64,000 nucleotides of DNA, taken from the IMG/VR virus record IMGVR_UViG_3300005405_000309; one strand, given 5' to 3'. This DNA is from an uncultured virus (IMG/VR IMGVR_UViG_3300005405_000309). Lineage: Duplodnaviria > Heunggongvirae > Uroviricota > Caudoviricetes. Below the pieces are notes generated by a model. The model was given only the letters and a program-made list of their open reading frames with translations, did not search any database and had not been told where the DNA came from. Within the stretch, counting starts at the first letter, position 1, and every line of letters starts with the position of its first letter. This document shows, one piece after another, positions 4,510 to 59,728 of the stretch. A program made the translations under genes and the position numbers.

Positions 4510-4511
4510 AA

Positions 4512-18454: not shown

Positions 18455-18523
18455 TTTATATTCTCCTCTCGCCCCGCCCCATCCAGGCTGTCGGGTTCAT
18501 GTAATCTCTTGCTGTTAATACTA

Positions 18524-21295: not shown

Positions 21296-21507
21296 ACCCT
21301 TATTATACCACCCTACCTATATTATTTCCATAAATAAAAATGATCGATCCCCGAGAAACCAGGGAGCGGTTTAGTTGCGTTGATAATATAATATAATCTT
21401 GTAATTCACTTGAATTGTAGCGCCCCTTCATAAATGTTGAGGAGGCGCTATGAGAAGGAATCAGCAATTTTTCCAATACTAAGTATTGAGGCAATCGAGT
21501 AAAGCTG

Positions 21508-29144: not shown

Positions 29145-29166
29145 GGCTCTTCGGATTATATGGCGG
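29145..29166. repeat. Orphan ISL3-type terminal IR
   Basis: GGCTCTTCGGATTATATGGCGG; no partner end found. Confidence 0.8.
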
Positions 29167-29181
29167 TATGACAAATATTTA

Positions 29182-31109: not shown

Positions 31110-31114
31110 GTTCC

Positions 31115-31336
31115 GTCCCTCCTTTCGGAAGTTAGTTGTCCATCGCCAATGTTGTAAAGGCTTGTTATGTCTACAGCACCGTTCCTACCCTCAGAACTTT
31201 TAACCATAGACGACAGTTGCTACAAACTTGGACTCGCATTTGTAGGTGTCTTGACCTATACAACGTAGTCAGTTAAGACTTAGGCTAGTCAATCAGGCTT
31301 TGTTAAGCCCCTAGCTTTAGCTATGGGGTTATTGAC
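31115..31336 (-). ncRNA. omegaRNA (HEARO-like) scaffold
   Basis: Non-coding stretch upstream of iscB with GACTAGCC, CTACGTT and AACATTGGCGATGG elements. Confidence 0.8.
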
Positions 31337-32287: not shown

Positions 32288-32497
32288 AAAAAAGAGGCCT
32301 CATGTTATTTCGCCGAAAAATGGCAATAAAAACATAAGGCCTCTTGTAATTTTTAAATTTCTGGCACCCCTGAACTAATCCAGAGACAGACGGTAATAAC
32401 GAACCGAAGTCATCCGATTCTTAAACTCTCGTTCGCGCCAATCCATTAGCACGAAGAAACACTATCGCAAAATGCGAAAAAAAATAGTAATTAATAT
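32288..32497 (-). ncRNA. Conserved structured leader/attenuator, copy D
   Basis: TGgTATAAT at 32504-32512, shared core, terminator 32288-32345. Confidence 0.75.
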
Positions 32498-32736
32498 ACT
32501 TGTATTATACCATGCAAGCATAGAAAAAACCACGAGTCCCCCTACACATCATTAATGAATTTTAGCTTTGTCCTTTATGATTGCTGCAATTATTTTACTT
32601 ACCCCCTTAAATTAGATCCCTCGTTCGTATTCGTAATTGGGATATTATTTTATACGAGGAGAAGGGTTAGTGTTGTAATGATTATAAAGCAAAGACTCTC
32701 AACAAATTCTTGTGACATATAAAGACACCCTTCAAT

Positions 32737-42526: not shown

Positions 42527-43372
42527 TTATTTTTGTATCCCTTTTAAATAATCACTCGTTATGTACTCCGTCCGCACCACTTGATTTCGTGCATTGAAAT
42601 TCGTGTAATGACTCACTGCCACTCCTTCTGATAAGATCGTGTTTAAATATCCCAGTACAACGGTCGTTGCCATTAGATTCGTCTGCATTCGTTGTGGGTA
42701 ATTCACGACCGCCCTTCCACAAGCTTGCGATGGAAAAAAATCAGTCGCATTCCCTAAAACATCTGAGTACACACCACCAACAGGTTCCAAGATCGTACGA
42801 GAGTTATGTCGTACCCCAAGCACAACCTGGCCAGAATACCCACTCTCTCGTTCATCCTCTTCAGATATTTCCTCAGAGATAGGAAGAACTCCATCATTGC
42901 CAGCATCAATATAGATTAAACTAGGCGAATCCATAAAATGGTCATGAAGTAATCGGCGTGTAGCGTTATTGTCCACTGCACCGATTAAAACCTTAATGAC
43001 CTGAACTCCGGGATAGCTATTAAAATCGCTCTTCATAGTAAACAACTGCTTAACTGCGTCCATCGTTTCTAGGTAATTACCAATCTTGCGAATATCCATA
43101 TCATAGACATTCCCATATCGTCGGGCTAAAACATCGACTTTCTTTTTCCCCACATCTGCCTGAATGAAATTTTGGCGCCTCAGATTATGCTCTTCGACAA
43201 CATCACCGTCAGCCAAAGTAAGACAACCTTCAGTATCAAACGCTTTAAACATCCGGGTCAAAGACTGCAGGATATAGCCACCCGTGCCTCCAACCCCTAC
43301 TAATGCGATATCCCAAATGATTCTAGCCTGTGTACTTGATGGAATAACGCGCAACTCAATCGTTTTTGACAT
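42527..43372 (-). CDS. ThiF/E1-like adenylyltransferase (PRTRC-type)
   Basis: VGVGGTGG, DGDVVEEHNLRRQNF, AVDN and candidate Cys in SQACG. Confidence 0.9.
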   Translation of the reverse strand: MSKTIELRVIPSSTQARIIWDIALVGVGGTGGYILQSLTRMFKAFDTEGCLTLADGDVVEEHNLRRQNFIQADVGKKKVDVLARRYGNVYDMDIRKIGNYLETMDAVKQLFTMKSDFNSYPGVQVIKVLIGAVDNNATRRLLHDHFMDSPSLIYIDAGNDGVLPISEEISEEDERESGYSGQVVLGVRHNSRTILEPVGGVYSDVLGNATDFFPSQACGRAVVNYPQRMQTNLMATTVVLGYLNTILSEGVAVSHYTNFNARNQVVRTEYITSDYLKGIQK

Positions 43373-44771
43373 TCACTTCGCCCCCAGATCGTTCAATCCT
43401 CATGTGCCATGTTTTCTTTTCAGCGTCGGTTGGTAAGTGCCTAGGTGCGTAAGAATCGTTACCAACGATATCGAACGGATTAATACGATGAAGATTCCCG
43501 CCACAAGCAATTCGACAGTCAAAACTCTGTCCTTTTTCATCTAACTTGTCCAGGTTTCCCCATACACCAAAAATGCCCGTCGAGACGGTTTCATCAATAT
43601 CGTCCGCTTCACTAAAAAAAGCATCCCATGTATTGTGCGAATGCATTTCTAAGACTTTTGTATATTTTGCCTCTATTAGTAAGTCTTCCGAATGATTTGT
43701 CGGGAAAACTTCATCAATAGTGACTACCTGGTAAGGAACATGCGCAAAATAACGCTGACCATCCCAATATATTCGTGCAAGAGCCTCCACCGGACTTGGC
43801 CCAATTGCAAGTTTAATAAAAAAATCTCTTACGACTCGTATCAAATCCGCAGGGATTTTGGGCATGAAAAGCTTAACGCCCTCTTGAACCTGTTCAGCAT
43901 TCGGATATGCTTCGTCGTTGAGTTTTATTGCAAAAATCCCAACCTTACTAATCCTCACTTCATAAAGTCCATCCTTACCTTGCAGAAGATTGCTTATTGA
44001 AGGCCTATTAAGAAGCGCTTGCCAACTTGAATGCGTCCGGACCCATGACATATCTTTATGCGCTGCCACAGCACCTTTTTTACCACCAAAAACATCTGCA
44101 AGTACCATCCCGTGTGGTCCAAGGGCCTTGATAACTGCTTGCAAAAGGTGATGTTCAATTTCTTCAAGATCATCCAAACTCGAGATCAACGGATCTTCTA
44201 ACTCTGGTATTGAAACATGAACAACTACTCCATCTTCGACGGTATCATCATTATCCTTTGAGTCCTTCTCATTCAACGCGGGATCTTCTTCCTCTTCCTG
44301 AGTGTCATCCGCATCATCCATGACTTCTTGTGATTCCGGTACCGTCGTTTTCTCCTCTTCTTCTAGAGGCGTTACTTCTGTCTCACCCTTAGCCTTTTTC
44401 TTGGCCTTGGGAAGTTTCGGTGGAATATAACTCATCATTGTCCGTTCCTTCGATAACTCCGGAAAGCGTTTTGCCATTTCCTTACGTATCTCTTGCAATG
44501 TCAACGTTCTGTTTTTAATGAGAATGTAATGGGCCGAAAAACAGAATATCTTCATATAGTTTAGGTATTCAGGTGACTTGTCAGATACGGTCTTAGCCTG
44601 ACCAGGTTTAACATTCGTTGCAGCCATGCCGGTCGTTACTTGTGTACTTGCATTTTTTTCTTTGGCATGCTGTACAGCCCCAGCCGTAAGACCAATCGGC
44701 TTCGGCTTTTCTTTCTTATACTGTTCAGCCTCTTCAGTTGGCAAAAGCCCAAATAAATCTAATTGATCCAT
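43356..44771 (-). CDS. JAB/MPN metallopeptidase with N-terminal putative Ubl and acidic region
   Basis: VEALARIYWD and HSHNTWDAFFSEADDIDE (JAMM); internal GGKKG. Confidence 0.85.
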   Translation of the reverse strand: MDQLDLFGLLPTEEAEQYKKEKPKPIGLTAGAVQHAKEKNASTQVTTGMAATNVKPGQAKTVSDKSPEYLNYMKIFCFSAHYILIKNRTLTLQEIRKEMAKRFPELSKERTMMSYIPPKLPKAKKKAKGETEVTPLEEEEKTTVPESQEVMDDADDTQEEEEDPALNEKDSKDNDDTVEDGVVVHVSIPELEDPLISSLDDLEEIEHHLLQAVIKALGPHGMVLADVFGGKKGAVAAHKDMSWVRTHSSWQALLNRPSISNLLQGKDGLYEVRISKVGIFAIKLNDEAYPNAEQVQEGVKLFMPKIPADLIRVVRDFFIKLAIGPSPVEALARIYWDGQRYFAHVPYQVVTIDEVFPTNHSEDLLIEAKYTKVLEMHSHNTWDAFFSEADDIDETVSTGIFGVWGNLDKLDEKGQSFDCRIACGGNLHRINPFDIVGNDSYAPRHLPTDAEKKTWHMRIERSGGEVNVKND

Positions 44772-44796
44772 TCTTCAATTCCTCCTCAAACATTAA

Positions 44797-45474
44797 TTAC
44801 ATCCGTTGCCATAAATCGTCTAATGTTTCCTGTCTCGATACTAAGATATCCTTCGGAAACACGTCTTTCATCTGCATCGTTTCTATCAACTGACGATAAG
44901 ACATATTTAACATCGTTTGTGTGTTAGGACTATAAAGATGTCCATTATCAGGGCATCCAAAAAAGACCGTTGGCAACCCATTAACCTGCCAAAGCTCTTC
45001 GATCTCTGGTACATCATTCCAACAAGCTAGCGCATCGTCATAGACATTACTGTACGGATAACGATAGAGCTGAGTGTTAGGTTGAATAAACAGATCCTTA
45101 ACAGCCACAACATATTTCTTGGAAACCGCCGTCCCATTTAGAACAAACCCAAAGATTAGATCTGGAAATGGGAGATTTTGAATTCGCTGATCAAATAACC
45201 AGGTATCCCTTAACCCACTAGGAACATGAATTAATACCTTCTGCCCCCCATTGCCCGTTGCATGGCGAAGACAATTCTTAGGGAGCCAAGGTCCCTCTCT
45301 CCACACGGTACTCAAGTTAGCCTCAGCAGCATCGATGAGCATGTGCAATTTCTCAGGCAGCACTTCTTTTTCGATAACTCCGCCCTCGTCGTCTACGAAA
45401 TGCACAAACGGGAACTTGTATTTTCTTAAAAGTATGATAGCCGAACCTTTCTCCTCTAAATCCGTTAGTACCAT
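44797..45474 (-). CDS. Prokaryotic E2-like protein (family D / PRTRC B-like)
   Basis: LPFPDLIF..LYRYPYSNVYDDALACW..FF pattern; next to JAB and ThiF. Confidence 0.8.
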   Translation of the reverse strand: MVLTDLEEKGSAIILLRKYKFPFVHFVDDEGGVIEKEVLPEKLHMLIDAAEANLSTVWREGPWLPKNCLRHATGNGGQKVLIHVPSGLRDTWLFDQRIQNLPFPDLIFGFVLNGTAVSKKYVVAVKDLFIQPNTQLYRYPYSNVYDDALACWNDVPEIEELWQVNGLPTVFFGCPDNGHLYSPNTQTMLNMSYRQLIETMQMKDVFPKDILVSRQETLDDLWQRM

Positions 45475-46856: not shown

Positions 46857-47216
46857 TTAAAAATACACTTCCTCGATTCTAATTGCGGGTACCTCTTCAG
46901 GACTCACCATTGTATCCATTTGATATGCTTTACGGAATACCATATCACGCAACAACATATCCCGAGTTACCTTCTCCGCATCGTATCCATCATCAATCGT
47001 TGGAATCTGATTGATTTCCGAAATAACCCATAACAACTCTTCTTCATTAATCTGGGAGTAATCCAGATAACACGCAAAATCCTTCTCATTGGTCGTCGAT
47101 ATGATCATGTTGAATCCACTCAAGAGCCCTTTGGCATATGCTAGGCGCGATTCGCTTTCTTCATCCGGCGCTCGCATATACCGTTCAATCTCTTGTAGTA
47201 TCAGAGCGCTCATCAT
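46857..47216 (-). CDS. Hypothetical protein
   Basis: GGAGG RBS. Confidence 0.7.
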   Translation of the reverse strand: MMSALILQEIERYMRAPDEESESRLAYAKGLLSGFNMIISTTNEKDFACYLDYSQINEEELLWVISEINQIPTIDDGYDAEKVTRDMLLRDMVFRKAYQMDTMVSPEEVPAIRIEEVYF

Positions 47217-47297
47217 GGGGCATTCCTCCTATCTCAATTTTAAAAGCACCTAGTACTCAAAGTCGCTAAGTGCTTTTTATAACTCCGACAAAAATAA

Positions 47298-47771
47298 TCA
47301 TTTTGGGTTCACCCTGCGATCACGATGACGATACAAGATATTTTTAGCTAAATTACTCTTAGCTGTTACCATGTAGTAATCTTTTCGTGTTACCTCTTCA
47401 ATAAGAACATCAAACTGCTTATCTATATCTTCACGATTATTTTTTAAGAGCTTCCACATATAGGTTGTAAGAATAAAAAAACTAGGTTGCGCTACTTGCT
47501 CTGACAGAATTGATTGGATATTAGATATTTCGTGTTTTCGAGTAAAAGTATTTATCTTTGCGTTAGGAACACTCTCAATTATGTCTCTTTCACAAAAGCC
47601 TACCATCATAGGGTGGACTACCACCAGTACTTTATAATTATCCGTACAACTTTCATCAGTACTAATTATAATACTTGAAAAGGTCTCATTCCCCATTTCT
47701 TTTTCAATTAAAAGCAAATTGGTATCCCCTAAATCCTTGTTAACAAATACCGCTGACTCAAATGAATTCAT
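47298..47771 (-). CDS. Hypothetical protein, first gene after leader E
   Basis: AGGAG RBS. Confidence 0.7.
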   Translation of the reverse strand: MNSFESAVFVNKDLGDTNLLLIEKEMGNETFSSIIISTDESCTDNYKVLVVVHPMMVGFCERDIIESVPNAKINTFTRKHEISNIQSILSEQVAQPSFFILTTYMWKLLKNNREDIDKQFDVLIEEVTRKDYYMVTAKSNLAKNILYRHRDRRVNPK

Positions 47772-47809
47772 GCTCTAGCTCTCCTTTCAATTATATGTTG
47801 ATTTATAAT

Positions 47810-48017
47810 AAAAAAGAGGCTTATGTAAAATCGCCTAAAAATGGCAACGTTTAACATAAGCCTCTTGTATTTTTAAAATTTCAAGAATCCCCGAAATAAT
47901 CCAGAGATAGAAATATTGGTGAATCCGAAGTAATCCGAATTCTAAACTCTCATTCGCACCAATCCAGTAGCACGAAGAAACTCTATCGCAAAATGCGAAG
48001 GAAAATAGTAATAATAT
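47810..48017 (-). ncRNA. Conserved structured leader/attenuator, copy E
   Basis: TGcTATAAT at 48024-48032, shared core, terminator 47810-47866. Confidence 0.75.
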
Positions 48018-48051
48018 AAACTTATTATAGCATGGTTTTTTACGAAAATCT

Positions 48052-48473
48052 AAGGTTTTCTCCAGCCGATTTACGTAATCCCTAAAAATGTTACGAATAG
48101 ATTTTTCATCCAAACCTATTTCATCTGCAAGAAGACTAACGAAAGTACGCTTTAATGATTGCTGTTCTATGTACTCAATGAGCCTTTTAGTGCAGCCACG
48201 TTTATCATCCGTGCCAGGTAAAGGTTCATAGAACGTCTGCCCACATTACCTGCATTTATAACGCAGCCGGTGAACTTCAATTCCAACTCTCTTGCCGTGC
48301 ATGGGTAAATCCAAAATGAGTTGAACACGCTTTGTGTGCTTGTAGAGATTGGCTTTAGCACCACACTGGGTACAGAAAAGAGGTGGTTTAATCGTTTCCA
48401 CCCCCACTTTGTAAGCATCATCAGATTCTTGGATATTTAGGACACTGTATTCGGGTAGATTAAGTATGTTCAT
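48052..48473 (-). pseudogene. ISL3 transposase remnant
   Basis: Homologous to 50440-51525; in-frame TAA after YKCR; truncated after DYVNRLEKT. Confidence 0.9.
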
Positions 48474-48479
48474 TAGGTT

Positions 48480-48722
48480 CTACTCCTTAAACGCTACTAC
48501 TGGAAACGCCCATCCTTCTTCATCTTCTTCAATAAGGTATGAGTCCTCATTATAATTGCTTTTCTCCTTGATGGTTACTTCAGTACCTAAGAAAACATCC
48601 ATTTCAACAGGTATAGGAGGGTCTGTCATTATGTCGTAAAAATTATCTTCCCCACCGACCCCAAATTGTTCGGCTAACTCCTCATAAGTTTTTAACATTA
48701 ACTTTTGACCATTTTCAAACAT
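48480..48722 (-). CDS. ISL3 passenger, paralog of 3441-3680
   Basis: MFENGQK...; GGAGG RBS. Confidence 0.85.
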   Translation of the reverse strand: MFENGQKLMLKTYEELAEQFGVGGEDNFYDIMTDPPIPVEMDVFLGTEVTIKEKSNYNEDSYLIEEDEEGWAFPVVAFKE

Positions 48723-49001
48723 TTTCGTTTCCTCCTAAATATGAAATACTTTCTAAGTGTTAATCTACTTCCCCTACTTGAATATCGCATTTCCCACAAT
48801 ACAGTGCACGTAATAACCATCTATATGGTTCTTGTCAATTCCGTATACTGTTTTTAAATCTTCACCCTTATTATTAACCTTGAGTTTTGCCACAACAGAT
48901 ATTTGCCTATTTATCGTTTCCGCACTTAGGACATTTCAACCTCGTACTATCCATATGAACAATCAACTCCTATTCGAGGATAGCCTTTTGAATACTGGAT
49001 T

Positions 49002-49202
49002 TTATGTGTTTAGGTCAAATGGAGGCAAACACAAAGTGTTTCTAGTATCGGGCAAAATCTTGAATTCTTTATTACATTCACTACAATAAGCATGAGTAAG
49101 AATTTCAAAACCGTCTTCAATAAGGATACTTTGTATACTATTACATTTACACTCAGGACAAATAACAGCTACAGGTTTATATTCCAAAATAAACACCCCC
49201 AT
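49002..49202 (-). CDS. Small Zn-ribbon protein
   Basis: CPEC...CSEC. Confidence 0.55.
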   Translation of the reverse strand: MGVFILEYKPVAVICPECKCNSIQSILIEDGFEILTHAYCSECNKEFKILPDTRNTLCLPPFDLNT

Positions 49203-49398
49203 GAAATTATTTTGCCACTAAACAAAGCAAGTGTCCACCATATAATCCGATCTTACATTGAATGACAATGACATTAAAACTCAATGCTTTCCAATAAAAG
49301 GATAAGTGTGAAAAAATGATTTGCGAACAATTTCACCTTTTTCTTTTTTGGAACGGTTGTTCAAAATTGAAGTTCGCGATTTGAAATAGCCATCCGGA

Positions 49399-50208
49399 TC
49401 ACGGACATTGCATCTCACGGATACTAGCCAGTATCATCTGCAAAAAGATCAATTCTACTCTGCTGAAAAGTCGCACCTCATCTGTCCGAAGTGGTAAGAT
49501 AAAAACATTTAAGACTTTCACTGCCTCTTGTATAGAAGTTGTTTGCAAGCAGAAATGATCAATAATCTCTATTTCCTGAATTGAGCTGAGATAGTCCCGT
49601 AGTTGGCGCTTGTGCGCGACGAGATTCAAATCCTTGAGTTGTAATAATCCTTCGAAATCCTGCACAGCAGCAAGCACATCATGAGGTGGACATTCCATCT
49701 GAAGTAATGTCTCTGTTCGATCAAAAATGGATCTTCTGATATCAGATACTCTTTTTTCGACAGATGAACATATCGCACGGCATTTGTCACCTAGCTTATT
49801 GCACTGCTTAATATCATCATAGTCCGTGGCATACGATAAAGTAATTTCTATCTGTGAGTACAATCTATGCATTTCTTCAATAAATGTATCCATGTGGAGA
49901 ATGAGGTCTTCGCTTGTGGCCAAAGCCTCCAAAGCCTTAATGCCATCGGAAAGAACATTTTTTTCGTAAGGCGTATTGGTTCTCCCTATAGTACGTTCGA
50001 CCCTTCTCCCGGTTAAGTAGTTCTTGTATTCTTGCGGGCTAAGTATACCCGCCAAAAAACCAGCTGCTTCCATTTCTCTAAGCCTGTCGAACGTGTCGGT
50101 ATCGGGCCACCGCTTCTTGAACCTGTAGCCCTCTAACGTCAGTCGCTCTAAACGTTTATAATCAAGGTGAGCTTGGAAGGCCCTAATGAGCCGGGTAACG
50201 ATATTCAT
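49399..50208 (-). CDS. Hypothetical protein
   Basis: 269 aa, AGGAG RBS. Confidence 0.7.
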   Translation of the reverse strand: MNIVTRLIRAFQAHLDYKRLERLTLEGYRFKKRWPDTDTFDRLREMEAAGFLAGILSPQEYKNYLTGRRVERTIGRTNTPYEKNVLSDGIKALEALATSEDLILHMDTFIEEMHRLYSQIEITLSYATDYDDIKQCNKLGDKCRAICSSVEKRVSDIRRSIFDRTETLLQMECPPHDVLAAVQDFEGLLQLKDLNLVAHKRQLRDYLSSIQEIEIIDHFCLQTTSIQEAVKVLNVFILPLRTDEVRLFSRVELIFLQMILASIREMQCP

Positions 50209-50439
50209 GGATTACTCCTTTCCGCCCCAGTTTCCTAATCTGTAACAGGTCTTTGCAATCGTGCTATTTATCAGCTCTCTTGTCTGTAGTACTTGCAATT
50301 ACCTTGAATCTGCAACATGCCAACCCCTTCCCTCCCATCTGCTTTCACAGAATTCTATGGTACTATGGGTTAGTCGGATTTCCTATAATGCATTTGCTTA
50401 CCTTGCTCGTTCCATTGCTTGAGTTCGCATACTGATTCC

Positions 50440-51525
50440 TCAGACATTATAGGACCTCAGCTGTTCTATTAGTATACTTATCATCAAACTCGCCAAGCTC
50501 TGACCCCCCGGAAGAGTCATGTTCTTCAGAGCAGTAAGCAAGTCCTTAAAAGCAAATATTAAGTGCTCAGGAATCTGCTCACGCCACTCTTTAAGGCGAA
50601 TTAGTGCTTCCTGCTGGCTTTGAGTCTCCCATATCCGATAAAACTCTTCCTTAAGCTCATAGGCCAGTCCTAAGTCCTTTAGCGTGCCGGTCCAAGCACT
50701 AAGGATTAATTGTTCTCTGATATCTAGTTTTGCTTTCCGTTTGAGCAAGATATGCCTATCGTGCATAAGAGTTCGCCGTTCCTTGGGAGTCAGCCCTTCT
50801 CGTACAGACTTCCGCACAGTTTCTAACGCTTGGTTAGCCATCTTAACGACGTGGAACTTATCGACCACGACTTGAGCCTGGGGCAATACAAGGCTAACTG
50901 CATCACGATAAGGTCTCCACATATCCATGGCAACGTACCTGATCCGTTGACGGTCAGGTAGACTTTGTAAGTAGGTAATCACTGTCGGTTTGTTGCGATC
51001 CGGAAGAATGTCGATGATGGTGTTATCTTGAATATTAGTTATCACACACCTGGGCTTAATAATGTAAATTTCGTCAATCCCAAGCCATTGAGGAGTTTGA
51101 ACCCGAAATGTTTTCTCTAACCGATTCACATAATCCCTAAAGATATTGCGGATCGTCTTTTCATCCACTCCAATTTCATCGGCAAGACTTACAAAAGTAC
51201 GTTTTAAGGACTGTTTTTCTATGTAGCCTACAAGCCGTTTAGTGCATCCCCGTTTATCGTCTGTGTGAGGCAGAACCTCATAAAAGGTCTGCCCACACTC
51301 ACGGCATTTATATCGCTGACGGTTCACATGGATACCTACACGCTTGCCATGCATGGGTAGATCCATGATGAGTTGCTTATGCTTAGTATGTTTGTAGAGA
51401 TTAGCCTTACAACCACATTGAGTACAACAAAGAGGTGGATTAGCTGTCTCCACCTCGATTCGGTAAGCCTCGTCACTTTCTTGGACGTTTATGACGTTGT
51501 ATTCAGGTAAATTTAGTATATTCAT
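50440..51525 (-). pseudogene. ISL3 transposase, C-terminally truncated
   Basis: GIDE, AMDMW and VDKFH present. Homology ends at TALKN (~50520), before the third catalytic (E) motif. Confidence 0.88.
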
Positions 51526-51539
51526 TATGTCTTACTTCC

Positions 51540-51752
51540 TTATAACTCCATATTTTTCGCTTTATCATCTATGTATTTTTCAAATCCTTTAATTGTTGGC
51601 CTAACATTTTTATCAACACAATCGCTTATATACCTTTTAAAACCCTCTCCTATATTTTCTAGCCAATCGGAACCATATCCTCCTGCATAAGCACTCCGTT
51701 CATACTTTTCAAGCTTATCTAATAACTTTTTGCTCATCACTTTATTTTCCAT
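51540..51752 (-). CDS. Small hypothetical protein (probable ISL3 passenger)
   Basis: Ends 14 bp before the transposase start. Confidence 0.6.
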   Translation of the reverse strand: MENKVMSKKLLDKLEKYERSAYAGGYGSDWLENIGEGFKRYISDCVDKNVRPTIKGFEKYIDDKAKNMEL

Positions 51753-51945
51753 TTACAACTTCAATAGAATCAACCTGCGGAGAACCAACATCCGAAGCAT
51801 TAGCCAATTTATTTTCCTGCTCTACAAATTTATCAATTGCCTTAAGACCAGCTTCATTTTCGTCCTTTGCATTAACTGTAATAGTTCGTTTCACAAAGCG
51901 TGTGCAAAATGACCCAACTTCAACACTATATTTCATGAAAATCAT
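51742..51945 (-). CDS. Small hypothetical protein (probable ISL3 passenger)
   Basis: Overlaps the next gene; RBS present. Confidence 0.6.
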   Translation of the reverse strand: MIFMKYSVEVGSFCTRFVKRTITVNAKDENEAGLKAIDKFVEQENKLANASDVGSPQVDSIEVVNGK

Positions 51946-51960
51946 CTTCCTTTTAAAAAT

Positions 51961-52110
51961 GGCTCAATAGCTTCACTTTCGTTTCGGCTCGTTTGTTCCC
52001 CGCCCTACGCTTAAACCTAATGTTACCATTTCGGCTCCAAGGACTAGGTACAGGCTACTGGTTAGGTATTACCTGATAGGCTTTTCCTACTGTATGTTAA
52101 TAGCTTACTA
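51961..52110 (-). other. Possible group II intron 5' (domain I) fragment
   Basis: Minus strand AGCTATTAACATACAGTAGG..AACCAGTAGCC..CTTGGAGCCGAA..GGTAAC..TTTAAGCGTAGG resembles, from memory, bacterial group II intron D1. No RT gene. Confidence 0.4.
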
Positions 52111-52381
52111 ATGAAAATAGAATTGCTTCAATTTCCAAGAGGAAACATCACGCATTTGCGTGCTGCTTCGCAGCTCGCGCCTGTGAGGCTATTATAGCCC
52201 TTTTTTCCAATCCATTCCACTTGCTGTTTTCATAATATAAATCCTCCATCAATTTATAAGGCTATCCGGATATCAGTCCATGTATGTTGAATTATTTGCG
52301 CTGTAATAGAACCATACATATATCGATGCATATTAGCCTATCCAATATCGACCGTGTGTAGGAATCGAAGTCTAATTTTTC

Positions 52382-53449
52382 TTATTTATATCGTACTACC
52401 CTATTGCGCCCGCCCTCTTTCGCCTGATACAACGCCCTATCCGCTTGATCAATCAGAACGTTCAACTCGCTCTTGCGATCCCATTCCGCCACCCCGATAC
52501 TGATCGTAACCTTTGCTTTAATTTTTTTCTCAGGATCAATAAACTCATAGCCTTCAACCCCTGCTCGTAATCGTTCAGCTGCAATCATTGACATATCTAC
52601 CGAGCTGTCTGGCAATACAATTATAAACTCTTCCCCACCATAACGAATAGGTATATCGTGTTGCCGGATGCTCTTCTTTGCCAATTTAGATACTTCTTTC
52701 AAGACAATATCACCAAAAAGATGTCCGTACTGATCATTAAATTTCTTGAAATGATCCACATCAAACATCACGAGTGATAAAGGATGCCCATTTCGTTTGC
52801 AATGTGACATCTCTTCCGGGCAGCGTTCCGCCATATAAAGCCGGTTAAACATTTTTGTCATGGGATCCGTGTGCGCTTTTTCACCAAGATCAAGAGCCTT
52901 TGCTTGTATTTTGGTATAATTTGAAACATTAATGAAGGCCGTCGTAGCTTGGCTGCTCAGAACGTCAAGAAAGTCTATAGTATCTTCTTCTAGCTCTTTC
53001 GCCTGGTAAATAAGTAAAACACCTAAAACATGTTGATGATTAAAAAGAGGCACGGCACATTGCGTATGTAAAATGGATATCTCTACAAGCGAGTCTGCCG
53101 TCATCACCTCGCCTTTGAGAACTGCTCGCCAAGCCAAAGTATCTTGAAATTTATTTTCAAATATTACTTTTTCTTCTTTGAAATTTTCGAAGCCACGACT
53201 AGCTACCAAACTAAGTCTTGTAGAGTCTTTATTCAGTAGCGCTATAGCTACCCCTGTCGCTTGACAAACAGCTTGTGCCGCTTGAATCACCTGATGTAAA
53301 ACATCTTCTTTACTCTCAGCACTGTTTAATGAGCGAATAATCTCGATGAGTAAAGCGAGTCTGAACGTTTGCTTCTCTAACTCGTTTTCAGCATCAGCAA
53401 GTGATTGTCTCTGTTGTTTAAATTGTTTCCAGAGTGAAAAGAAAAACAT
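52382..53449 (-). CDS. GAF-GGDEF diguanylate cyclase
   Basis: DVDHFKKFNDQYGH, RQHD I-site, RYGGEEF, AKEGGRNR. Confidence 0.93.
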   Translation of the reverse strand: MFFFSLWKQFKQQRQSLADAENELEKQTFRLALLIEIIRSLNSAESKEDVLHQVIQAAQAVCQATGVAIALLNKDSTRLSLVASRGFENFKEEKVIFENKFQDTLAWRAVLKGEVMTADSLVEISILHTQCAVPLFNHQHVLGVLLIYQAKELEEDTIDFLDVLSSQATTAFINVSNYTKIQAKALDLGEKAHTDPMTKMFNRLYMAERCPEEMSHCKRNGHPLSLVMFDVDHFKKFNDQYGHLFGDIVLKEVSKLAKKSIRQHDIPIRYGGEEFIIVLPDSSVDMSMIAAERLRAGVEGYEFIDPEKKIKAKVTISIGVAEWDRKSELNVLIDQADRALYQAKEGGRNRVVRYK

Positions 53450-53453
53450 GAGC

Positions 53454-54200
53454 TCACCCCCTTAAATAATGATACACAGGCATTAATGAAGGGCTAACCT
53501 TATCCCATACTGGACCCACAATTCTATAAGTTGCAAACGATAATAAACAGTAACGACAAACTACTTTATCCAAAAGACTATTCGTACTAATTGAAATAGG
53601 TAAACGAATACGCTTTTTAATAAGAGGATATAAAAGAGGTACCCCATCTGAAATAAGATCTAAAAGCAAATGACTAAAATAGCCGGCACCGAAAACAACT
53701 AATAGCGATATACGCCATGGAAGTAGAAAACTTAATCCCTTTAAGCCTAACAAAGTGTCTAAGCCCCACATGAAAACTCCCATACCCAGTAATGTATGCG
53801 TGATCCCTCGATGTTTGAGAGAAGCGATGATGACCAACGTAGCCCCTAAAATCCCAACAATAAGACTTACCCAAAAAGAATGACGTTGGATTAAGTTCAA
53901 TAAAACAGCGGAGTCTAAAACTCGTCCAAGTACATTAGGAGTGCGCAACACAAAACTTATTACGAGGAGCAGTAATCCACCTAACATCGCGCCAATGCGC
54001 GTCTTCCCGAGCGGTCCGAAAAGTTCTTGATCAATTGTGCTACCTGGTTGATCGATATCAGGTAATATTCCACCAATCAGTGCTAATCCAAGACCCACTC
54101 CCATAACTATTGTTTCTTGCTCATTCATAGGTTGAAGAGTCGCTGGAAGCATATACGACCAAGCGGCCAACGCGCCCGCTAAATGGGTTTTACCCATCAT
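53454..54200 (-). CDS. YdjM-like membrane metal-dependent hydrolase
   Basis: GKTH, LPDID, HRGITH and SHLLLD motifs. Confidence 0.88.
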   Translation of the reverse strand: MMGKTHLAGALAAWSYMLPATLQPMNEQETIVMGVGLGLALIGGILPDIDQPGSTIDQELFGPLGKTRIGAMLGGLLLLVISFVLRTPNVLGRVLDSAVLLNLIQRHSFWVSLIVGILGATLVIIASLKHRGITHTLLGMGVFMWGLDTLLGLKGLSFLLPWRISLLVVFGAGYFSHLLLDLISDGVPLLYPLIKKRIRLPISISTNSLLDKVVCRYCLLSFATYRIVGPVWDKVSPSLMPVYHYLRG

Positions 54201-54363: not shown

Positions 54364-54663
54364 TTATCCCCCTTCTTTTGTGTACATAGCCCGATTGATC
54401 GCCATATAAACCAAATCGGGACGGGTTCGATTATCAAACTCTCTGCAGAGTTCATTTAATCCCCTTGCCATCTCTACTTCCAATTGGAAAAACTTCCGGA
54501 TAGGTCGCGGCGGTAAATCTTTTGGAGGCCTCGTCGGGTTCTTTAAATAAGCCTCTACAATTTCATTGAAAACTTTATTATCGCTCTTACCCTCCCTGGA
54601 TGCCGTTTTTTCTAGATAGTTTGATTGTTCTTCTGTAAGGGCTATCAATAGACGAAATCCCAT
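54364..54663 (-). CDS. Tandem ribbon-helix-helix-like protein
   Basis: Two beta-alpha-alpha-like units; abuts the VWA gene. Confidence 0.5.
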   Translation of the reverse strand: MGFRLLIALTEEQSNYLEKTASREGKSDNKVFNEIVEAYLKNPTRPPKDLPPRPIRKFFQLEVEMARGLNELCREFDNRTRPDLVYMAINRAMYTKEGG

Positions 54664-56129
54664 TATTCAAACACTCCCTGATATAAAGATGCAGCATCAC
54701 GCTCTAAACACTGAATTTTTAAGACTTTATCTGATATGTCATCAAGTACTGGTTGATTTTCTTGACTAAACAATACCCCGAAAAGACGAAATCCCAACTT
54801 CTTCTTATCTTCCGTTATCCGGTTTGTGAATTCAACGCTACTTTTAAACTCTCCATCTGTTAAAAGTACCATATCTCCACCCTGGGCTAAATCGTCCTCG
54901 AATATCTCTAATGCATGCACAATCGCCTCGGCATAATAGGTGCCATGTCCAAAATATGCTGTAAGGAGAAGTTGCTTGATGTCCTCATCCCTAGAATCGC
55001 CAGTGAAACGTAAAACCATCCGCTCGCCAATTCCACTGAATAATATTACATGGAAATCCTGCTTACGTGCTTTTGCAATCTCATAAAGTCCTAATGCCAA
55101 AGCCTTTTCATCACGCTCTTTTCCTGGGGTAATCGACTCAGATACATCAATGAGAACAACCATAGAACCGCGTTTCTTCTCCGGTACCTCAGGGGTCTGA
55201 ATCCCCCATAATACCCCTTTCTTATAGCGGTCCATGAATAATTCTTGACCCAAAGAGTGTGCTCCTAACGCCATTTCACTCGGTAAAAGTGCACTTATAT
55301 CGTTACTCATACCGAACTCTATATCATTTTCTATCCCCCGCTCCCGGATTGTTCGGTTCGCGAGGCTCATCATTCGCCCAATCTGATCTGCAAAACCCTG
55401 AATATCGAGTTGCCGATCTAGAAAATGACCTAGGCAGAGGGGATTAGCTTGCCAGCGTGGCCGTTTCTGCCCTAAACTATGCGACAGTCTTTCGGCATCC
55501 AGAACATCCCCCAAAACAGCTGCCACATCCAAATTTATTCGCGCCTCGTCGATGGTTACATTTGCAAGGCCCTGACCTAATCCCTGTTGGTCCTTCGAGC
55601 GTACACCTGACGACTTAGTTTGAATCTGCTCTTCGTATTGTTCTGGAGCTGGCGAGATGCTTACAAATAACCGCTTTATAAACTCCCATAATCGCTTCAT
55701 AAAGCTATCCTTAGTGTGCGTTATCTCAAATCGCTCCTTAGAATGTAGGAGTTCAGTTGCTTCATTATCAGTACCCTGGTTCATCGTTTGGTTACGATAA
55801 AAGGTTGCCCATCGCTCTAGGGCTCTTTGAGTGGCAACATAAGCAAGCCCTGGATTGCTAACTGTCTTCTTGCGTAGCTTATGAAAAAAGGCTGAGCGAA
55901 AAAAAGCATCTAACCAGAGAAAGCGAACCATGTCCTCCATTGTGGCGTTTAATGGCTTGGTTAGGGTAACACCAACAAATAGTAGTAAGGTAAAAAGATC
56001 TTCTGACATTGATCTCATTAAGGGATCTGTCTTTTTCTTATGATGGCCTCTATTTTCCCACAAAGATTCATCTCTTAACCAGCGTTGATGTTCTTGATTA
56101 ATTGGCACATTGCTTAATCGTTGGCTCAA
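54663..56129 (-). CDS. VWA-domain protein (ViaA-like)
   Basis: LLPSE, IDVSES MIDAS, GT and LTDG motifs. Confidence 0.85.
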   Translation of the reverse strand: MSQRLSNVPINQEHQRWLRDESLWENRGHHKKKTDPLMRSMSEDLFTLLLFVGVTLTKPLNATMEDMVRFLWLDAFFRSAFFHKLRKKTVSNPGLAYVATQRALERWATFYRNQTMNQGTDNEATELLHSKERFEITHTKDSFMKRLWEFIKRLFVSISPAPEQYEEQIQTKSSGVRSKDQQGLGQGLANVTIDEARINLDVAAVLGDVLDAERLSHSLGQKRPRWQANPLCLGHFLDRQLDIQGFADQIGRMMSLANRTIRERGIENDIEFGMSNDISALLPSEMALGAHSLGQELFMDRYKKGVLWGIQTPEVPEKKRGSMVVLIDVSESITPGKERDEKALALGLYEIAKARKQDFHVILFSGIGERMVLRFTGDSRDEDIKQLLLTAYFGHGTYYAEAIVHALEIFEDDLAQGGDMVLLTDGEFKSSVEFTNRITEDKKKLGFRLFGVLFSQENQPVLDDISDKVLKIQCLERDAASLYQGVFE

Positions 56130-56374
56130 ATAAAATCATCACCTTGCTGTTTGAATAACACCCTCTGCTCATTTTCGATCTCCATTTTCATATCTTCGTA
56201 TCCATTCCACTCACTCATCGTCACGCATTCAAGCTCATGTGTTGCAAATCGAACTACTGTTAAGGTGAAATCTCCATTGGCCAACGGACGGACAAGGGAC
56301 ACTACGCCTCCTCCATTGGGGGTATCAATACATTGACCTAATTTTGGCAAGAAATTTCCTCTCATCTTCTTCAC
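56126..56374 (-). CDS. Small hypothetical protein
   Basis: Coupled between the ATPase and VWA genes. Confidence 0.55.
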   Translation of the reverse strand: MKKMRGNFLPKLGQCIDTPNGGGVVSLVRPLANGDFTLTVVRFATHELECVTMSEWNGYEDMKMEIENEQRVLFKQQGDDFI

Positions 56375-57549
56375 CCACTCTTTTTTAAACTTTTGAGGTC
56401 GTCTAAATCATCCTCGATCCATGCAATAGCACCTTCAATACGACTTATAAAAATAGTTATAAAGGAGGTTTCCTGCTGGTGTTTAGCCTGCTCCAATAAG
56501 AAATTATCGTCCTTACAATATGACCGAAACAGTTTTAAAAGCCCAAGCCCCTTGCTTATTCTTATCGATGAATTTAATCGTTTGTAATCTTCCAATAATT
56601 GCGCAGCCTCTAATGCGTGCTGTTCTGTTTGCGCCATAGAAGGCCAGATCGTCCGATAGACTAAAAAGCGCATTTTATCAATTTCTTCAGGAATATTCCA
56701 TAACACATGTTGTAATATAAGTAGATCCTCTGACTCAACATTCATGCGCCCTTGGAAATACGCCTCGGCCTTAATAAGCGTAGCCGCTTGGATAAACTTT
56801 CGCGTAGATCGGTCAATGCCCTGAAACTCCAGTTGCTCCCAAAGATGAATTAAAACTTCCCTTGTGGTTCCTAATTCAACACGCTTTACCATATCCTGCG
56901 CAGATTTTAATTCATCCATCGTGATCTTTGTCTCAAATGCATGAATCTCTCCTCGCGCCTCTGCTTCGATCCGGTCTAAAAGCCTGTTGCCATAGTTACT
57001 AATGCTTAACCTCTTTACTGAATACCGCAAGGCAAACCGGTCCCAAAACGCTTCCAATCCATCCCCATTTTTCGGCAGTTCATTCGACGCCCCAATAAGG
57101 CTCATTAGGGGTACTTGGATAGTGGTCCTCCCATTCACAAAACGACGATTCTCCATCATATCAAGATTCATGTTTAATAAACCTGGATTTGTTTTAAAAA
57201 TCTCGTCCAGAAAGACCACGTCGGCCACTGGCATTTTTTGATCAATAACATGTTCAAAACTACCTTCTTCGAAGTATTTCTTTATTGCAACCGGCCCTAC
57301 CAGTTCATCTTCTTTAGTATACTTACCTACTAACCAGTGAAAGAATTGTCCTCCCACCCTGTTGCAGATAGCCGTGATTATTGATGTCTTCCCCTCTCCC
57401 CAAGGTCCGATCAAAGCAACGTGCTGCTTTGAAAGAATGGCAAGGAGGATTCCATGAATAACATCTTCTTGGTCAAAATATTGATCGTTGACTTCTTCTT
57501 CTATCTTACGGAGGAGATGACATATGGAAGTTCGTTCGTTTCTGTCCAC
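56371..57549 (-). CDS. MoxR/RavA-like AAA+ ATPase
   Basis: GPWGEGKT, FLDEIFK, GASNELP and AFWDRF motifs. Confidence 0.9.
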   Translation of the reverse strand: MDRNERTSICHLLRKIEEEVNDQYFDQEDVIHGILLAILSKQHVALIGPWGEGKTSIITAICNRVGGQFFHWLVGKYTKEDELVGPVAIKKYFEEGSFEHVIDQKMPVADVVFLDEIFKTNPGLLNMNLDMMENRRFVNGRTTIQVPLMSLIGASNELPKNGDGLEAFWDRFALRYSVKRLSISNYGNRLLDRIEAEARGEIHAFETKITMDELKSAQDMVKRVELGTTREVLIHLWEQLEFQGIDRSTRKFIQAATLIKAEAYFQGRMNVESEDLLILQHVLWNIPEEIDKMRFLVYRTIWPSMAQTEQHALEAAQLLEDYKRLNSSIRISKGLGLLKLFRSYCKDDNFLLEQAKHQQETSFITIFISRIEGAIAWIEDDLDDLKSLKKSG

Positions 57550-57989
57550 CCAGACACCTTCTTTCAGCCTTAAGTTATGTATTAATTATATATCTATATA
57601 TTAAGAAGTCAACACTTTTGAGTGTTGACTAAAATGTTATTTCTAATTATGATAAGGGTTTTATAATATCCAGATTATATGGTGGAAAACCTTCTGATAA
57701 TTTCTAGTTACAATAATCGTTAAACCTTAAGAGAGGCAACATTAGAGACTAGAAAAAATAGACTGTAAAACCCTCGCCATACCCCACAGAACAAACATGT
57801 TTACACTTACAGCGTTCAAATTTTTCATCGAGAGACCGCATAATGACGAATATCGTCTTTCCCTGTGAGATTTCCCGGAACTAAATTTAGGATACCTTTT
57901 AGAAAAAAACGGCTCTTCGGATTATATGGTGGAATAGGAATATGCCATAATCCAAATTTGGAGATTTGTGTAAATATATAAATTGCCCA

Positions 57990-58307
57990 TTATTGGGTAC
58001 TAATTCCGAATAATCTATTCATACCCTGGCGTGTAACGCGCCAATTCCCTTTTGATTTTCTCGCTTCATTGCTACCGAAACGATTTTCGGACAAATATCG
58101 TTTCAATGTAGGCTCAGTAGCATTTGACCATTTTGTAGCTGCTTCAGGCACTGACATCACATCTGTAAGGGATATGATGTTATCCGGTCCGTAAGCTGTG
58201 CCATCTGGAGAAACTAATACAATCTGACCGTAACTACTAGAAGCGTGTCCCTTGGTTAGCCTCCAACCCTCCCATGGACCAGTGCCTTTCCAAATGTCAC
58301 TCATCAA
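57990..58307 (-). CDS. HTH-domain protein (cassette passenger)
   Basis: VMSVPEAATKW...EARKSKGNWRVTRQGMNRLFG. Confidence 0.75.
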   Translation of the reverse strand: MMSDIWKGTGPWEGWRLTKGHASSSYGQIVLVSPDGTAYGPDNIISLTDVMSVPEAATKWSNATEPTLKRYLSENRFGSNEARKSKGNWRVTRQGMNRLFGISTQ

Positions 58308-59290
58308 TTTTCCTCCTTAAACCTGTCGGGGTAGGCTGCTCTTATGGCTTTTTTGGGGTTCTGAGAATAGTATTTTTGCATTGGAGCAGAGAGTCCGTAT
58401 TTCTGAAAGGTTTCAATTTTGATATTTAAAATATCTGTTTCAGGGTTAAGCCTAAGCTTTTCTTCGACCATCCATTTTATCGCAACAATAGCTCTTTCCT
58501 CGTTCCAATAATTTCTCGAAACTACATTTAGTTCCCAAGGTTTATATTTATCGGGATAAGCATCATCTAGTGCGCTAAAAGGGCTGGATTCATACACTAC
58601 ATCTAACATTCCCTCAAGCCCGTTGTCGATAAAGACTTGCTTTGTAAGTTTATTAATAATATCCTTGTTATTCCACTGTAATCTCTCATTAAGTAGCCAT
58701 TTTGTTGCACTTATGGCTGTATTTTTATTCCAAAATTCCCTTGTTACGCTGCTCAGCTCCCAGGGTAAATATTCTTTAGGATATGCCAAGTCCAACGCCT
58801 CAAATACCCCGTTTACTTTAAATAAAACGGTCCTTAATCCATTATCGCCAAATACTTGTGCTTTCAGATTCTTTTTTATATCATCTCTATTCCATTTTAG
58901 TTTTTCTTCGATCAGCCATTTTGTAGCCTGTATCATCGTATCGTTGTTCCAGAAGCCCATTGGCGTACTTGCCAATTCCCATTCCTTAAATCTCCCAGGA
59001 TAGGCAGCATCGAGCGCCTTGAATGGAGTGTTTTCATAAACGATAGTCAGCATTCCGTAGAGTTTATTATCAATGTATATTTTTCCGGAATGCTTTTTTA
59101 TGAAATCATCATCATTCCAACTTAGAATATTTTCAAACATATAACGAGTAACCGTGATAGCGTTTTCAGGTGCTTCTGGGAGTTGCCAAAACCCTTTAGG
59201 GAATTTTTTTATATCTCTCTTTAGTACTAGCTTATAGATTTCTACAGCTGTTAGTCCAAACACCTTAGTTGCAACACTTAGTTTGGCCAT
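58304..59290 (-). CDS. DUF4046-like repeat protein (cassette passenger)
   Basis: About four repeats of ATKWLIEEKL.W..F..NGL..AYP..WEL. Confidence 0.75.
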   Translation of the reverse strand: MAKLSVATKVFGLTAVEIYKLVLKRDIKKFPKGFWQLPEAPENAITVTRYMFENILSWNDDDFIKKHSGKIYIDNKLYGMLTIVYENTPFKALDAAYPGRFKEWELASTPMGFWNNDTMIQATKWLIEEKLKWNRDDIKKNLKAQVFGDNGLRTVLFKVNGVFEALDLAYPKEYLPWELSSVTREFWNKNTAISATKWLLNERLQWNNKDIINKLTKQVFIDNGLEGMLDVVYESSPFSALDDAYPDKYKPWELNVVSRNYWNEERAIVAIKWMVEEKLRLNPETDILNIKIETFQKYGLSAPMQKYYSQNPKKAIRAAYPDRFKEEN

Positions 59291-59375
59291 GAATAGCCCC
59301 CCTTTTATTCGCCTATTCCTCCGAAAGTACACCTAAACATTAGATGCACTTTCGGGAGAATAATCTCTTTGGTGA

Positions 59376-59552
59376 TCAGTACGCTTTTTCCAGTTCAAGC
59401 ATTTCCTCAAAACTGATTACCTTGTCAAGTTCGGCGAATGCGCTAAAATCTGAACGAACACTTGATTCTCCTGAGTCGATGTATTTTCCATCTTGTTCTA
59501 ATTCGGCTTGAAGCTCGCGCCATTCTTTGTAAAGGTTAGTTAGCTTCATCAT
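59376..59552 (-). CDS. Small hypothetical protein (cassette passenger)
   Basis: AGGAG RBS before MMKLT. Confidence 0.6.
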   Translation of the reverse strand: MMKLTNLYKEWRELQAELEQDGKYIDSGESSVRSDFSAFAELDKVISFEEMLELEKAY

Positions 59553-59626
59553 ATCGTAAAACTCCTTCTTGCCCCGCCTCATATAGGCTGCCGGGTTGTT
59601 CTGCCGTATCAATTGCTGTTAAGATA

Positions 59627-59666
59627 ATTATAAGCGAATTCGCTCATAATATCAAGCGAATTCGCT
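59627..59666 (-). promoter_or_regulatory. Sigma-A promoter with two palindromic operators
   Basis: TTGATA-17 bp-TATAAT; AGCGAATTCGCT at 59633-59644 and 59655-59666. Confidence 0.8.
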
Positions 59667-59728
59667 TATAATTCAAAATTTAAACTGGAAATTAAAATTG
59701 CATTTTCCACCATAAAATCCGGATAGCC

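Follow-up and report, generated by a model that had tools for sequence, protein, structure and literature searches.

The mobile insertion cassette (MIC) concept, for which MIC231 of Bacillus cereus is the example, describes passenger genes enclosed by insertion sequence (IS)-type inverted repeats (IRs) and a target duplication, without a transposase. IS derivatives that carry passenger genes are called transporter ISs (tISs) (PMC9330008). For the ISL3 family, published accounts give ISPst2 as an element of 2,985 bp with two passenger genes and 8-bp repeats (PMC6305408), and ISPpu12 as an element with 24-bp IRs and 8-bp duplications that carries czcD (PMC3735179); an ISL3-type miniature inverted-repeat transposable element (MITE) with GGCTCTTCG termini and 8-nt repeats has been reported from Microcystis (PMC11448079). 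Here we examine three ISL3 transposase copies, together with the small genes upstream of them, in a 64,000-nt stretch of one strand of an uncultured Caudoviricetes record (IMG/VR IMGVR_UViG_3300005405_000309), hereafter the window. An earlier note on this DNA had observed that the transposases near 3, 48 and 51 kb are each preceded by a different set of small genes, and had proposed that genes are gained and lost in this slot in a manner reminiscent of integrons. We consider it probable that the three copies belong to one ISL3 subgroup of tISs whose passengers are swapped rapidly, and that mobile insertion cassettes accompany them. Like ISPst2 and ISPpu12, as far as the available descriptions of those elements extend, the window elements combine an ISL3 transposase with imperfect 24-bp IRs beginning GG(G/C)TAT, 8-bp duplications and passengers located inside the IRs. 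By our own count, the left IR (IRL) of ISPst2 matches that of the 3-kb element at 19 of 24 positions.

Element ends were located with the 17-nt IR-core word CGGATTATATGGTGGAA, which has nine matches in the window at no more than three mismatches, compared with 0.22 expected; none of 100 shuffled sequences reaches nine. The ISL3-type terminus GGCT(A/C)T is present on six of the nine, and reading of the flanks at these matches defines three complete elements, E1, E2 and E3 (Table 1), with IRs of ~24 bp that begin GGCT or GGGT. Such IRs are missing from the 51-kb copy (W51), and the 48-kb copy (W48) has an inner repeat only. All three transposases reported earlier are indeed present on the minus strand, but only the 3-kb copy, E1, is whole. 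Its IRL (GGGTATTCGGATTATCATGTTGAT) and right IR (IRR; GGCTATTCGGATAATCGTGTTGAT) agree at 21 of 24 positions and represent a different sequence type from the type-2 IRs of E2 and E3. E1 is flanked by an 8-bp target duplication, GGATAAAA on the minus strand (3821-3828 and 1737-1744), and in silico excision of the element with one duplication copy restores a single 213-aa open reading frame (ORF) across the junction. The transposase stop codon lies inside the right IR, and its Pfam matches comprise DDE_Tnp_ISL3 (1.8e-59, positions 1-240 of 240), Zn_ribbon_ISL3 (1.4e-10) and HTH_Tnp_ISL3 (8.4e-10). Because of these ends, the duplication and the split ORF, the two upstream genes of E1 can be placed inside a real transposed element. 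These are the MFENG gene and a 116-aa ORF, which more likely starts at 3378, at a TTG preceded by AGGAGG. Thus, E1 carries passengers between the IRs of an element that encodes its own transposase, as expected for a tIS. L035, L071 and L083 show the same organization with perfect duplications, and L034 and L053 have both IRs but no perfect duplication. The duplications outside the cargo, the split ORF and the different flank beyond the left IR of an E1 relative (a contig of run X2) suggest that E1 transposes as a unit with its passengers.

Relatives were collected by scanning viral and metagenome sequences with the transposases and the two IR types, yielding a comparison set of ten transposase-bearing loci in which upstream ORFs of at least 40 aa were considered. 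The E1 clade includes the transposases of loci L034 (85% amino acid identity) and L035 (74%), and the clade of the 48- and 51-kb copies includes those of L053 (78-79%) and L007. A third clade consists of L071 and L083, which are 96% identical to each other and ~50% identical to the others, and L056 and L066 are 97% identical to one another in DNA and 58-59% identical to the 51-kb clade. A quick tree backs the pairs E1 and L034, W51 and L053, and L071 and L083; the L007 row of the tree was mistranslated across its frameshift, and our use of relationships is limited to these three well-supported pairs and to the identity matrix. The nearest match from a cultured genome is a frameshifted copy in Desulfosporosinus metallidurans that is 90% identical to the W51 transposase, with a methylase fragment directly upstream and a right IR that is the single IR in that genome. 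No close relatives were found among deposited plasmids and phages. The best plasmid matches reach ~65% DNA identity over parts of the transposase gene (MFENG has no plasmid match), and the transposases of ISPst2 and ISPpu12 are only distantly related. All 37 phage records with ISL3 transposases fall below 60% amino acid identity (39-42% for the best listed), and a phage DNA search gave one weak match.

The transposase-bearing elements share a common build: a 24-bp outer left IR, an inner IR core, one to four co-oriented passengers, the transposase, and a right IR that extends over the transposase stop codon. The inner copy of the IR core lies 46-57 nt inside the outer IR at all eight left ends that have an outer IR, and a similar inner copy is visible by eye within the last transposase codons at right ends. 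Perfect 8-bp duplications, which are A+T-rich, flank 13 of the 18 IR pairs from the window and the fetched loci, and one more pair matches at seven of eight positions. Transposase genes begin within a few bases of the stop codon of the last passenger, or overlap it, and in L053, L071 and L083 the last cargo ORF overlaps the transposase start. The nine cargo regions contain 18 IR-core matches compared with 0.57 expected, all of them outer or inner left-end sites with the exception of L035, which has two further inner repeats, one of them 68 nt before the transposase and accompanied by a promoter-like box. The end of the inner repeat supplies a -35-like hexamer, and an extended -10-like box lies beyond it at a spacing of 17 nt; the strict pattern TGnTAnnnT occurs at 5 of 11 inner-repeat sites, and three more sites show near variants by eye. 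This arrangement fits a single promoter, with its -35 element in the inner repeat, that could express the cargo and transposase as one operon.

Within this conserved frame the passengers differ between any two of the sampled elements. Among 32 upstream ORFs in the ten loci, only five homologous pairs are shared between elements, while transposases within clades are 70-96% identical. The five pairs are MFENG (E1 and W48), a 152/134-aa protein and a NikA-like ribbon-helix-helix protein (both L034 and L035), the first gene of L071 and L083, and a methylase 3' end (L007 and L066). In none of the three clades sampled is the cargo constant. The gain and loss of genes before the transposase that the earlier note proposed is therefore upheld, both by cargo differences within clades and by the presence of MFENG in two lineages after their split. 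At the DNA level, E1, L034 and L035 have only the transposase and IRs in common. A cargo block common to L034 and L035 is 86% identical in DNA, compared with 74% for their transposase genes, and ~540 nt are present in L035 where L034 has ~180. L071 and L083 each have a perfect duplication. Their identity is 88% between the IR and codon ~115 of the first gene and 91% from the transposase start onward, and the intervening 356 and 388 nt, respectively, are unrelated. Even at 96% transposase identity, the gene that adjoins the transposase is thus not the same in these two elements. In the X2 contig (3,125 nt), the E1 left end and MFENG are retained at 97.5% identity and the transposase at 86%, and 532 other letters stand in place of window positions 3100-3378. 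Remnants are also found: L053 retains 69 nt of the MFENG 3' end at 91% identity, and L056 and L066 contain a methylase 3' remnant like that of L007. The remaining cargo includes a 298-aa RCC1-repeat gene in L056, HicA/HicB with a helix-turn-helix (HTH) gene, small membrane proteins and a few PHROG families of unknown function, and mostly matches no family.

The MFENG gene provides a direct comparison of ages. The copies in E1 and W48 encode proteins with 88% amino acid identity that end ...VAFVN and ...VAFKE, respectively, in line with the differing last two codons of the earlier note; their nonsynonymous and synonymous divergences (dN and dS) are 0.08 and 0.61, and third-position identity is 0.73. 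The adjoining transposases have a third-position identity of 0.35 over the first 139 aligned codons, with dS saturated and not computable, and dS between the W48 and W51 transposases is 1.9. MFENG is far younger than the transposases it adjoins, and so it entered at least one element long after the transposase lineages split. Its place among the passengers also varies: the gene comes first in E1, second in L053 and last in W48. A 121-kb viral contig has an MFENG homologue (61% identical to that of E1, with two frame breaks) amid small genes, and the 5 kb on each side of it contain neither a transposase nor an IR. MFENG pieces in runs X2-X4, which carry a groundwater metagenome label, lie on contigs with depths of ~500 to 6,800 whose flanks are exactly those of the 121-kb contig, and run X1 holds another MFENG context; coverage gaps outside 1787-3825 in the X2-X4 contigs carry no meaning. 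The usual home of MFENG thus seems to be a very abundant phage. The protein belongs to no Pfam or PHROG family, falls among only eight protein clusters including its own in a search of 5.8 billion proteins, and gives an AlphaFold model with a mean pLDDT of 60; its closest Atlas clusters (score 0.93) consist of unnamed viral proteins, a lead only.

To the right of the exchanged segments, 10 of 11 pairwise comparisons become homologous again no more than 3 nt from the transposase start codon, and the eleventh does so within 16 nt; two pairs keep this border even though their start codons differ (ATG and GTG). Left borders have no fixed site and cut through genes. The earlier suggestion that cargo junctions be inspected for a shared motif gave nothing: no repeat, hairpin or recurring motif was found at them. 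We propose that passengers and transposase move together as a tIS, and that whole genes or gene parts from the small-gene pool of large phage-like genomes may replace one another within the element. As the most likely route, element copies would recombine with genes resident in phages or plasmids, either illegitimately or through short homologies. Products that lose transposase expression would not persist, and this could place the right border at the start codon; such a reading accounts for the sharp border only loosely, as the outcome of selection among recombinants for transposase expression from a compact operon. A bolder version, which we regard as rather unlikely, posits that the transposase start codon anchors a true cargo slot, at which whole genes of abundant phages would be fused with base precision to the transposase start and co-translated with it via a dedicated route. 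That route might use the inner repeat as an alternative left end, as hinted by the extra inner repeat of L035 just before its transposase, and the elements, with or without a transposase, would then act as a general shuttle of phage accessory genes among the phages and plasmids of one habitat.

E2 and E3 each enclose passengers between type-2 IRs with a target duplication and without a transposase, the organization that defines a MIC, and in silico removal of E3 extends a neighbouring 178-aa ORF to 183 aa across the junction. Overall, 10 of the 18 IR pairs lack a transposase, and they range from 139 bp with no long ORF (L069) to 1,818 bp. In addition to E2 and E3, this group comprises L063, L067, L046, L057, L048, L075, L077 and L069, and all ten duplications are perfect except that of L069 (seven of eight). 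Copies on several contigs with identical flanks were counted once (L046/L047/L052 and L057/L032). Most of these cassettes contain one complete small gene or small operon. For example, L063 (305-1636) is a 1,332-bp cassette with the perfect duplication GAATAAAA that carries HicA-like, HicB-like and HTH genes. The motif AATTTCCAG lies ~12 nt inside one IR in L077b, L075b, L067b, L057a, L046b, L028a, L063a and at 59690-59704 of the window; it is not found in the sampled transposase-bearing elements, which points to an autonomous partner outside the sample. E2 and E3 themselves are predicted to need a type-2 transposase supplied in trans. The 161-aa gene of E2, like the 67-aa gene of W51, has no usable relatives in viral contigs.

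A further IR-bounded element, L028 (2,181 bp, 4001-6181), resides in a complete 79,361-nt virus with terminal repeats. A window pair of 233- and 287-aa genes with a palindrome-flanked promoter (15809-16620 and 17592-18561, minus strand) shows 76-82% DNA identity to its cargo, and the two genes at 15812-18454 are 71-80% identical to it. In the window version the genes are separated by an additional ~970 bp, and an upstream IR is missing. The DNA common to the 79-kb virus and the window is confined to these two segments and one end of E3. An apparent second copy of the L028 cassette in a 123-kb contig was rejected as evidence of transposition: the two copies are 79,284 nt apart, close to the 79,361-nt record length, and represent the same locus read twice.

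The alternative that survives best, to which we assign a low probability, is that the genes before the W51 transposase, and possibly those before that of W48, are resident genes of the replicon that came to lie beside transposase fragments after left-end deletions, so that the apparent difference in cargo is an accident of decay. Both copies are truncated. The W48 transposase stops at ~48050, where a repeated intergenic module replaces the remainder, and its only Pfam match is the zinc ribbon. No outer GGCT-type IRL is present ~55 nt upstream of the inner repeat, its place in intact relatives, and there is no right IR. W51 lacks the last ~100 transposase codons, which occur nowhere in the window and are replaced by unrelated sequence. 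All three ISL3 domains are recognized in W51, but the DDE domain only to profile position 195 of 240. A scan of 47001-54000 that allowed 8 mismatches in 24 positions detected neither an IRL nor an IRR for W51, and its upstream genes therefore cannot be placed inside an element. Both copies are dead remnants. The 67- and 70-aa genes before W51, which abut the transposase start at 51525 and are unrelated to the passengers of the other copies, as the earlier note had said, may be resident genes of the host replicon. In this regard, a 166-kb viral contig has a homologue of the 70-aa gene (83% amino acid identity) as an ordinary gene, and the 4.2 kb examined there contain neither a transposase nor an IR; the whole gene array of the window also runs in the direction of the 67- and 70-aa genes. 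The 12-nt word GGCTATCCGGAT at 52260-52271 (plus strand) was rejected as an element end because ~0.1 such matches are expected by chance with two free positions and nothing IR-like follows. The word equals the outer half of an IR, lies 110 nt downstream of a GGDEF gene, and could be a chance occurrence or all that is left of an element end.

Other observations count against this alternative. The inner-IR site, the Zn-ribbon gene, the stop-containing Zn-ribbon remnant and the MFENG gene were all read correctly in the earlier note, and the inner repeat lies just upstream of the Zn-ribbon gene, as in intact relatives. Regarding its concern that the upstream genes might lie outside the true element ends, those at 48 kb are inside the inner repeat, although the outer left IR is gone, but at 51 kb there is no end on either side. 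MFENG is found inside the intact E1 and as a remnant inside L053, and intact relatives with perfect duplications also show an unrelated gene abutting the transposase start. The turnover seen in E1, L034, L035, L071, L083 and the X2 contig is left untouched by this alternative.

An integron-like site before the transposase, filled with cassettes through site-specific recombination by the transposase or another enzyme, appears very improbable, and nothing suggests such a mechanism. The constancy of the right border, kept even between ATG and GTG starts, the replacement of exactly the second passenger gene in the X2 contig, and the extra inner repeat with its promoter-like box in L035 could all be accommodated by it. 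However, no recombinase other than the DDE transposase is encoded in any element, and, in agreement with the earlier note, no integrase is found among the Pfam matches of 71 window ORFs or 20 scanned cargo proteins. There is no room for recombination sites because cargo ORFs overlap or abut. No recurrent repeat was seen between cargo genes, where attC-type sites would lie (no dedicated attC structure search was run), and eight of nine elements have no IR-core remnant there. Left borders fall inside genes, at codon ~115 of the first gene in L071/L083 and at the MFENG and methylase 3' remnants, and the shifting position of MFENG is inconsistent with a fixed order of entry. The likeness to integrons drawn in the earlier note consequently does not extend to mechanism. 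Equally improbable is the idea that the upstream genes encode accessory transposition or regulatory proteins of the element, for although they are oriented like the transposase, are closely coupled to its start and include DNA-binding types (NikA-like ribbon-helix-helix in L034 and L035; HTH_59 in E3 and L028), their families are unrelated even among elements whose transposases are 70-96% identical, and they extend to HicA/HicB, an RCC1-repeat protein, membrane proteins and a methylase fragment, and in the case of MFENG and the 70-aa gene also occur without any transposase.

Several observations weigh against rapid passenger exchange within a tIS subgroup that is accompanied by MICs. L034, L053 and L028 have no matching duplication. 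The comparison set numbers only ten loci, and in four of them 'cargo' is defined by position only, given that W51, L007 and L066 have no left end and W48 has the inner repeat alone. The relatives come from metagenomes and viral contigs, and the D. metallidurans copy is the sole cultured match (1 of 69 genomes of the family and 1 of 112 of the class). Promoter-like sites are no commoner than in shuffled sequences, and the strict pattern is found in fewer than half of the inner-repeat sites. Both type-2 transposases in the window, those of W48 and W51, are broken, which bears on the predicted mobilization of E2 and E3. Finally, 10 of 11 borders within 3 nt are sharper than expected from random recombination and selection, and this border is the one feature not obviously explained by ordinary recombination.

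Table 1. Positions of the ISL3-type elements, their genes and repeats, and associated features in the window
Feature	Position	Strand	Basis or remark
E1, ISL3 tIS, 2,076 bp	1745-3820	-	24-bp IRs, 8-bp duplication, full-length Pfam ISL3 domains
E1 IRR	1745-1768	-	inverted-repeat match
E1 transposase	1747-3111 (probable start 3099)	-	454-aa ORF
E1 second passenger, 116-aa ORF	3124-3474	-	between MFENG gene and transposase
E1 MFENG gene	3441-3680	-	first passenger
E1 inner repeat	3741-3757	-	IR-core match
E1 IRL	3797-3820	-	inverted-repeat match
Halves of 213-aa gene split by E1	1284-1709 and 3779-4009	-	in silico excision
Repeated intergenic module	7051-7277, 32288-32513, 47809-48032; partial 11644-11756, 21150-21311	-	repeat families D1, D3, D6; alignment of five copies
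Solo type-2 IR, partly decayed	14427-14450	+	IR-core match
E2, 641-bp cassette without transposase	18835-19475	-	type-2 IRs GGCTATCCGGATTATATGGTGGAA, GGCTCTGCGGATTATGTGGTGGAA; perfect 8-bp duplication ATATTTTC
E2 161-aa ORF	18868-19353	-	matches phrog_4334
E2 inner repeat	19395-19411	-	IR-core match
Solo type-2 IR GGCTCTTCGGATTATATGGCGGTA	29145-29168	+	IR-core match
W48, decayed ISL3 copy	48050-49256	-	inner repeat, passengers, transposase remnant
W48 transposase remnant, 141 codons	48473-48050	-	TAA at codon 76 (48248-48246)
W48 MFENG gene	48480-48722	-	ends 6 nt before transposase ATG at 48473
W48 Zn-ribbon remnant	~48750-48955	-	~63-codon frame, CPKCG...CGKCD, six in-frame stops
W48 Zn-ribbon gene, 66 aa	49002-49202	-	CxxC...CxxC
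W48 inner repeat	49233-49256	-	inner-IR site CGGATTATATGGTGGAC at 49249-49233, among the nine window IR-core matches
269-aa ORF between W48 and W51	49399-50208	-	no Pfam or PHROG match
W51, 3'-truncated ISL3 transposase and two upstream ORFs	50440-51945	-	Pfam, alignment with relatives
W51 transposase ORF	50440-51525	-	homology to relatives ends at residue 335 (50521)
W51 70-aa ORF	51540-51752	-	directly precedes transposase
W51 67-aa ORF	51742-51945	-	precedes 70-aa ORF
Inner-type repeat without GGCT terminus	57664-57687	+	247 bp outside E3
E3, 1,818-bp cassette without transposase	57911-59728	-	type-2 IRs; perfect 8-bp duplication AAAAAAAC
E3 105-aa ORF	57990-58307	-	HTH_59
E3 342-aa ORF	58304-59332	-	weak DUF4046 match, below Pfam's stretch threshold
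E3 78-aa ORF	59376-59612	-

The window has a G+C content of ~40%, nearly all of its long ORFs lie on the minus strand, and its gene content is of the mobile-element kind. Named genes include orphan methylases, a MmeI-type enzyme, an NAD-dependent ligase, a DNA polymerase III beta clamp, a ClpX-like protein, MoxR/VWA proteins, a ThiF/E2 pair, a UvrD-type helicase and an SLT/M23 peptidase. Among 48 other window ORFs scanned, none matched PHROG phage structural families apart from the M23/SLT peptidase, whose matches are endolysin, tail and head families. The 269-aa ORF between W48 and W51 falls among only three protein clusters including its own in the 5.8-billion-protein search, none with a name. 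The repeated intergenic module begins with an extended -10-like box (TGGTATAAT), followed by a conserved leader of ~100 nt and, in three of five copies, a terminator hairpin. The leader folds into three conserved hairpins with 25 pairs, two of which show compensatory change, and a search of Rfam with the module found no family at the gathering score. The module may represent a small RNA of this replicon or one of its leader elements.

Other mobile-element and RNA-associated loci are also present. A 408-aa protein with RRXRR and HNH domains (29883-31109, minus strand) adjoins a full-length HEARO RNA at 31131-31336, which scores 151.6 bits against a gathering score of 83, and from its sequence the 29883-31336 region is assigned as an IscB-type RNA-guided nuclease locus. 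The solo ISL3 IR at 29145 lies ~700 bp downstream of this locus. A ClpX-like AAA+ gene with a C4 zinc finger (12601-13962, minus strand) shares its start with part of an IS200-like Y1 transposase gene for 143 aa (13940-14371, minus strand; E 1.8e-31), the two overlapping there. Across the minus-strand stretches 42527-45474 and 54663-57549, a 471-aa ORF is flanked by a ThiF-family protein and a prokaryotic E2 (family D), and a MoxR-type ATPase is located close to a VWA protein, with a 241-nt gap between the last two.

Compared with known systems, the window group resembles integrons in that variable, small, co-oriented genes lie beside a DNA-recombination gene and may be read from a promoter at one end. 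Integrons differ in having a tyrosine-recombinase integrase, attI and attC sites and a fixed order of entry, none of which is seen here, where exchange borders cut genes, IRs enclose the complete unit and its insertion duplicates the target. In tailed phages, mosaic exchange produces borders that fall at gene boundaries. The window group likewise shows sharp homology borders at gene starts, and its passengers are also found as ordinary genes of large viral contigs, but the exchange takes place inside a transposable element and each new combination is itself mobile. E2, E3 and the eight further IR pairs share with MICs and MITEs the family IRs, the absence of a transposase and the 8-bp duplications, and differ from them in mostly holding one complete small gene or operon, in one case HicA/HicB with an HTH gene. 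Passengers of ISL3 elements and transposase-less IS derivatives were already known, as the earlier note recognized for the former; what is unusual here is the speed of turnover. In the accessible descriptions of ISPst2 and ISPpu12, every copy carries the same metal- or regulator-type passengers, whereas those of the window group are variable, small and mostly unknown genes of phage type. We found no description of hypervariable small-gene cargo within one ISL3 clade in the literature available to us, which is weak evidence of novelty given that most subscription journals and ISfinder lie outside that coverage. If the pattern holds in a larger sample, it would offer a straightforward way for phage accessory genes without known function to gain mobility of their own, and a natural marker of small genes under selection to spread. 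tISs and insertion cassettes have usually been described singly and with fixed cargo, mostly resistance or metal genes, whereas here nearly every sampled copy carries a different set, and single-gene derivatives without a transposase stand beside full elements.

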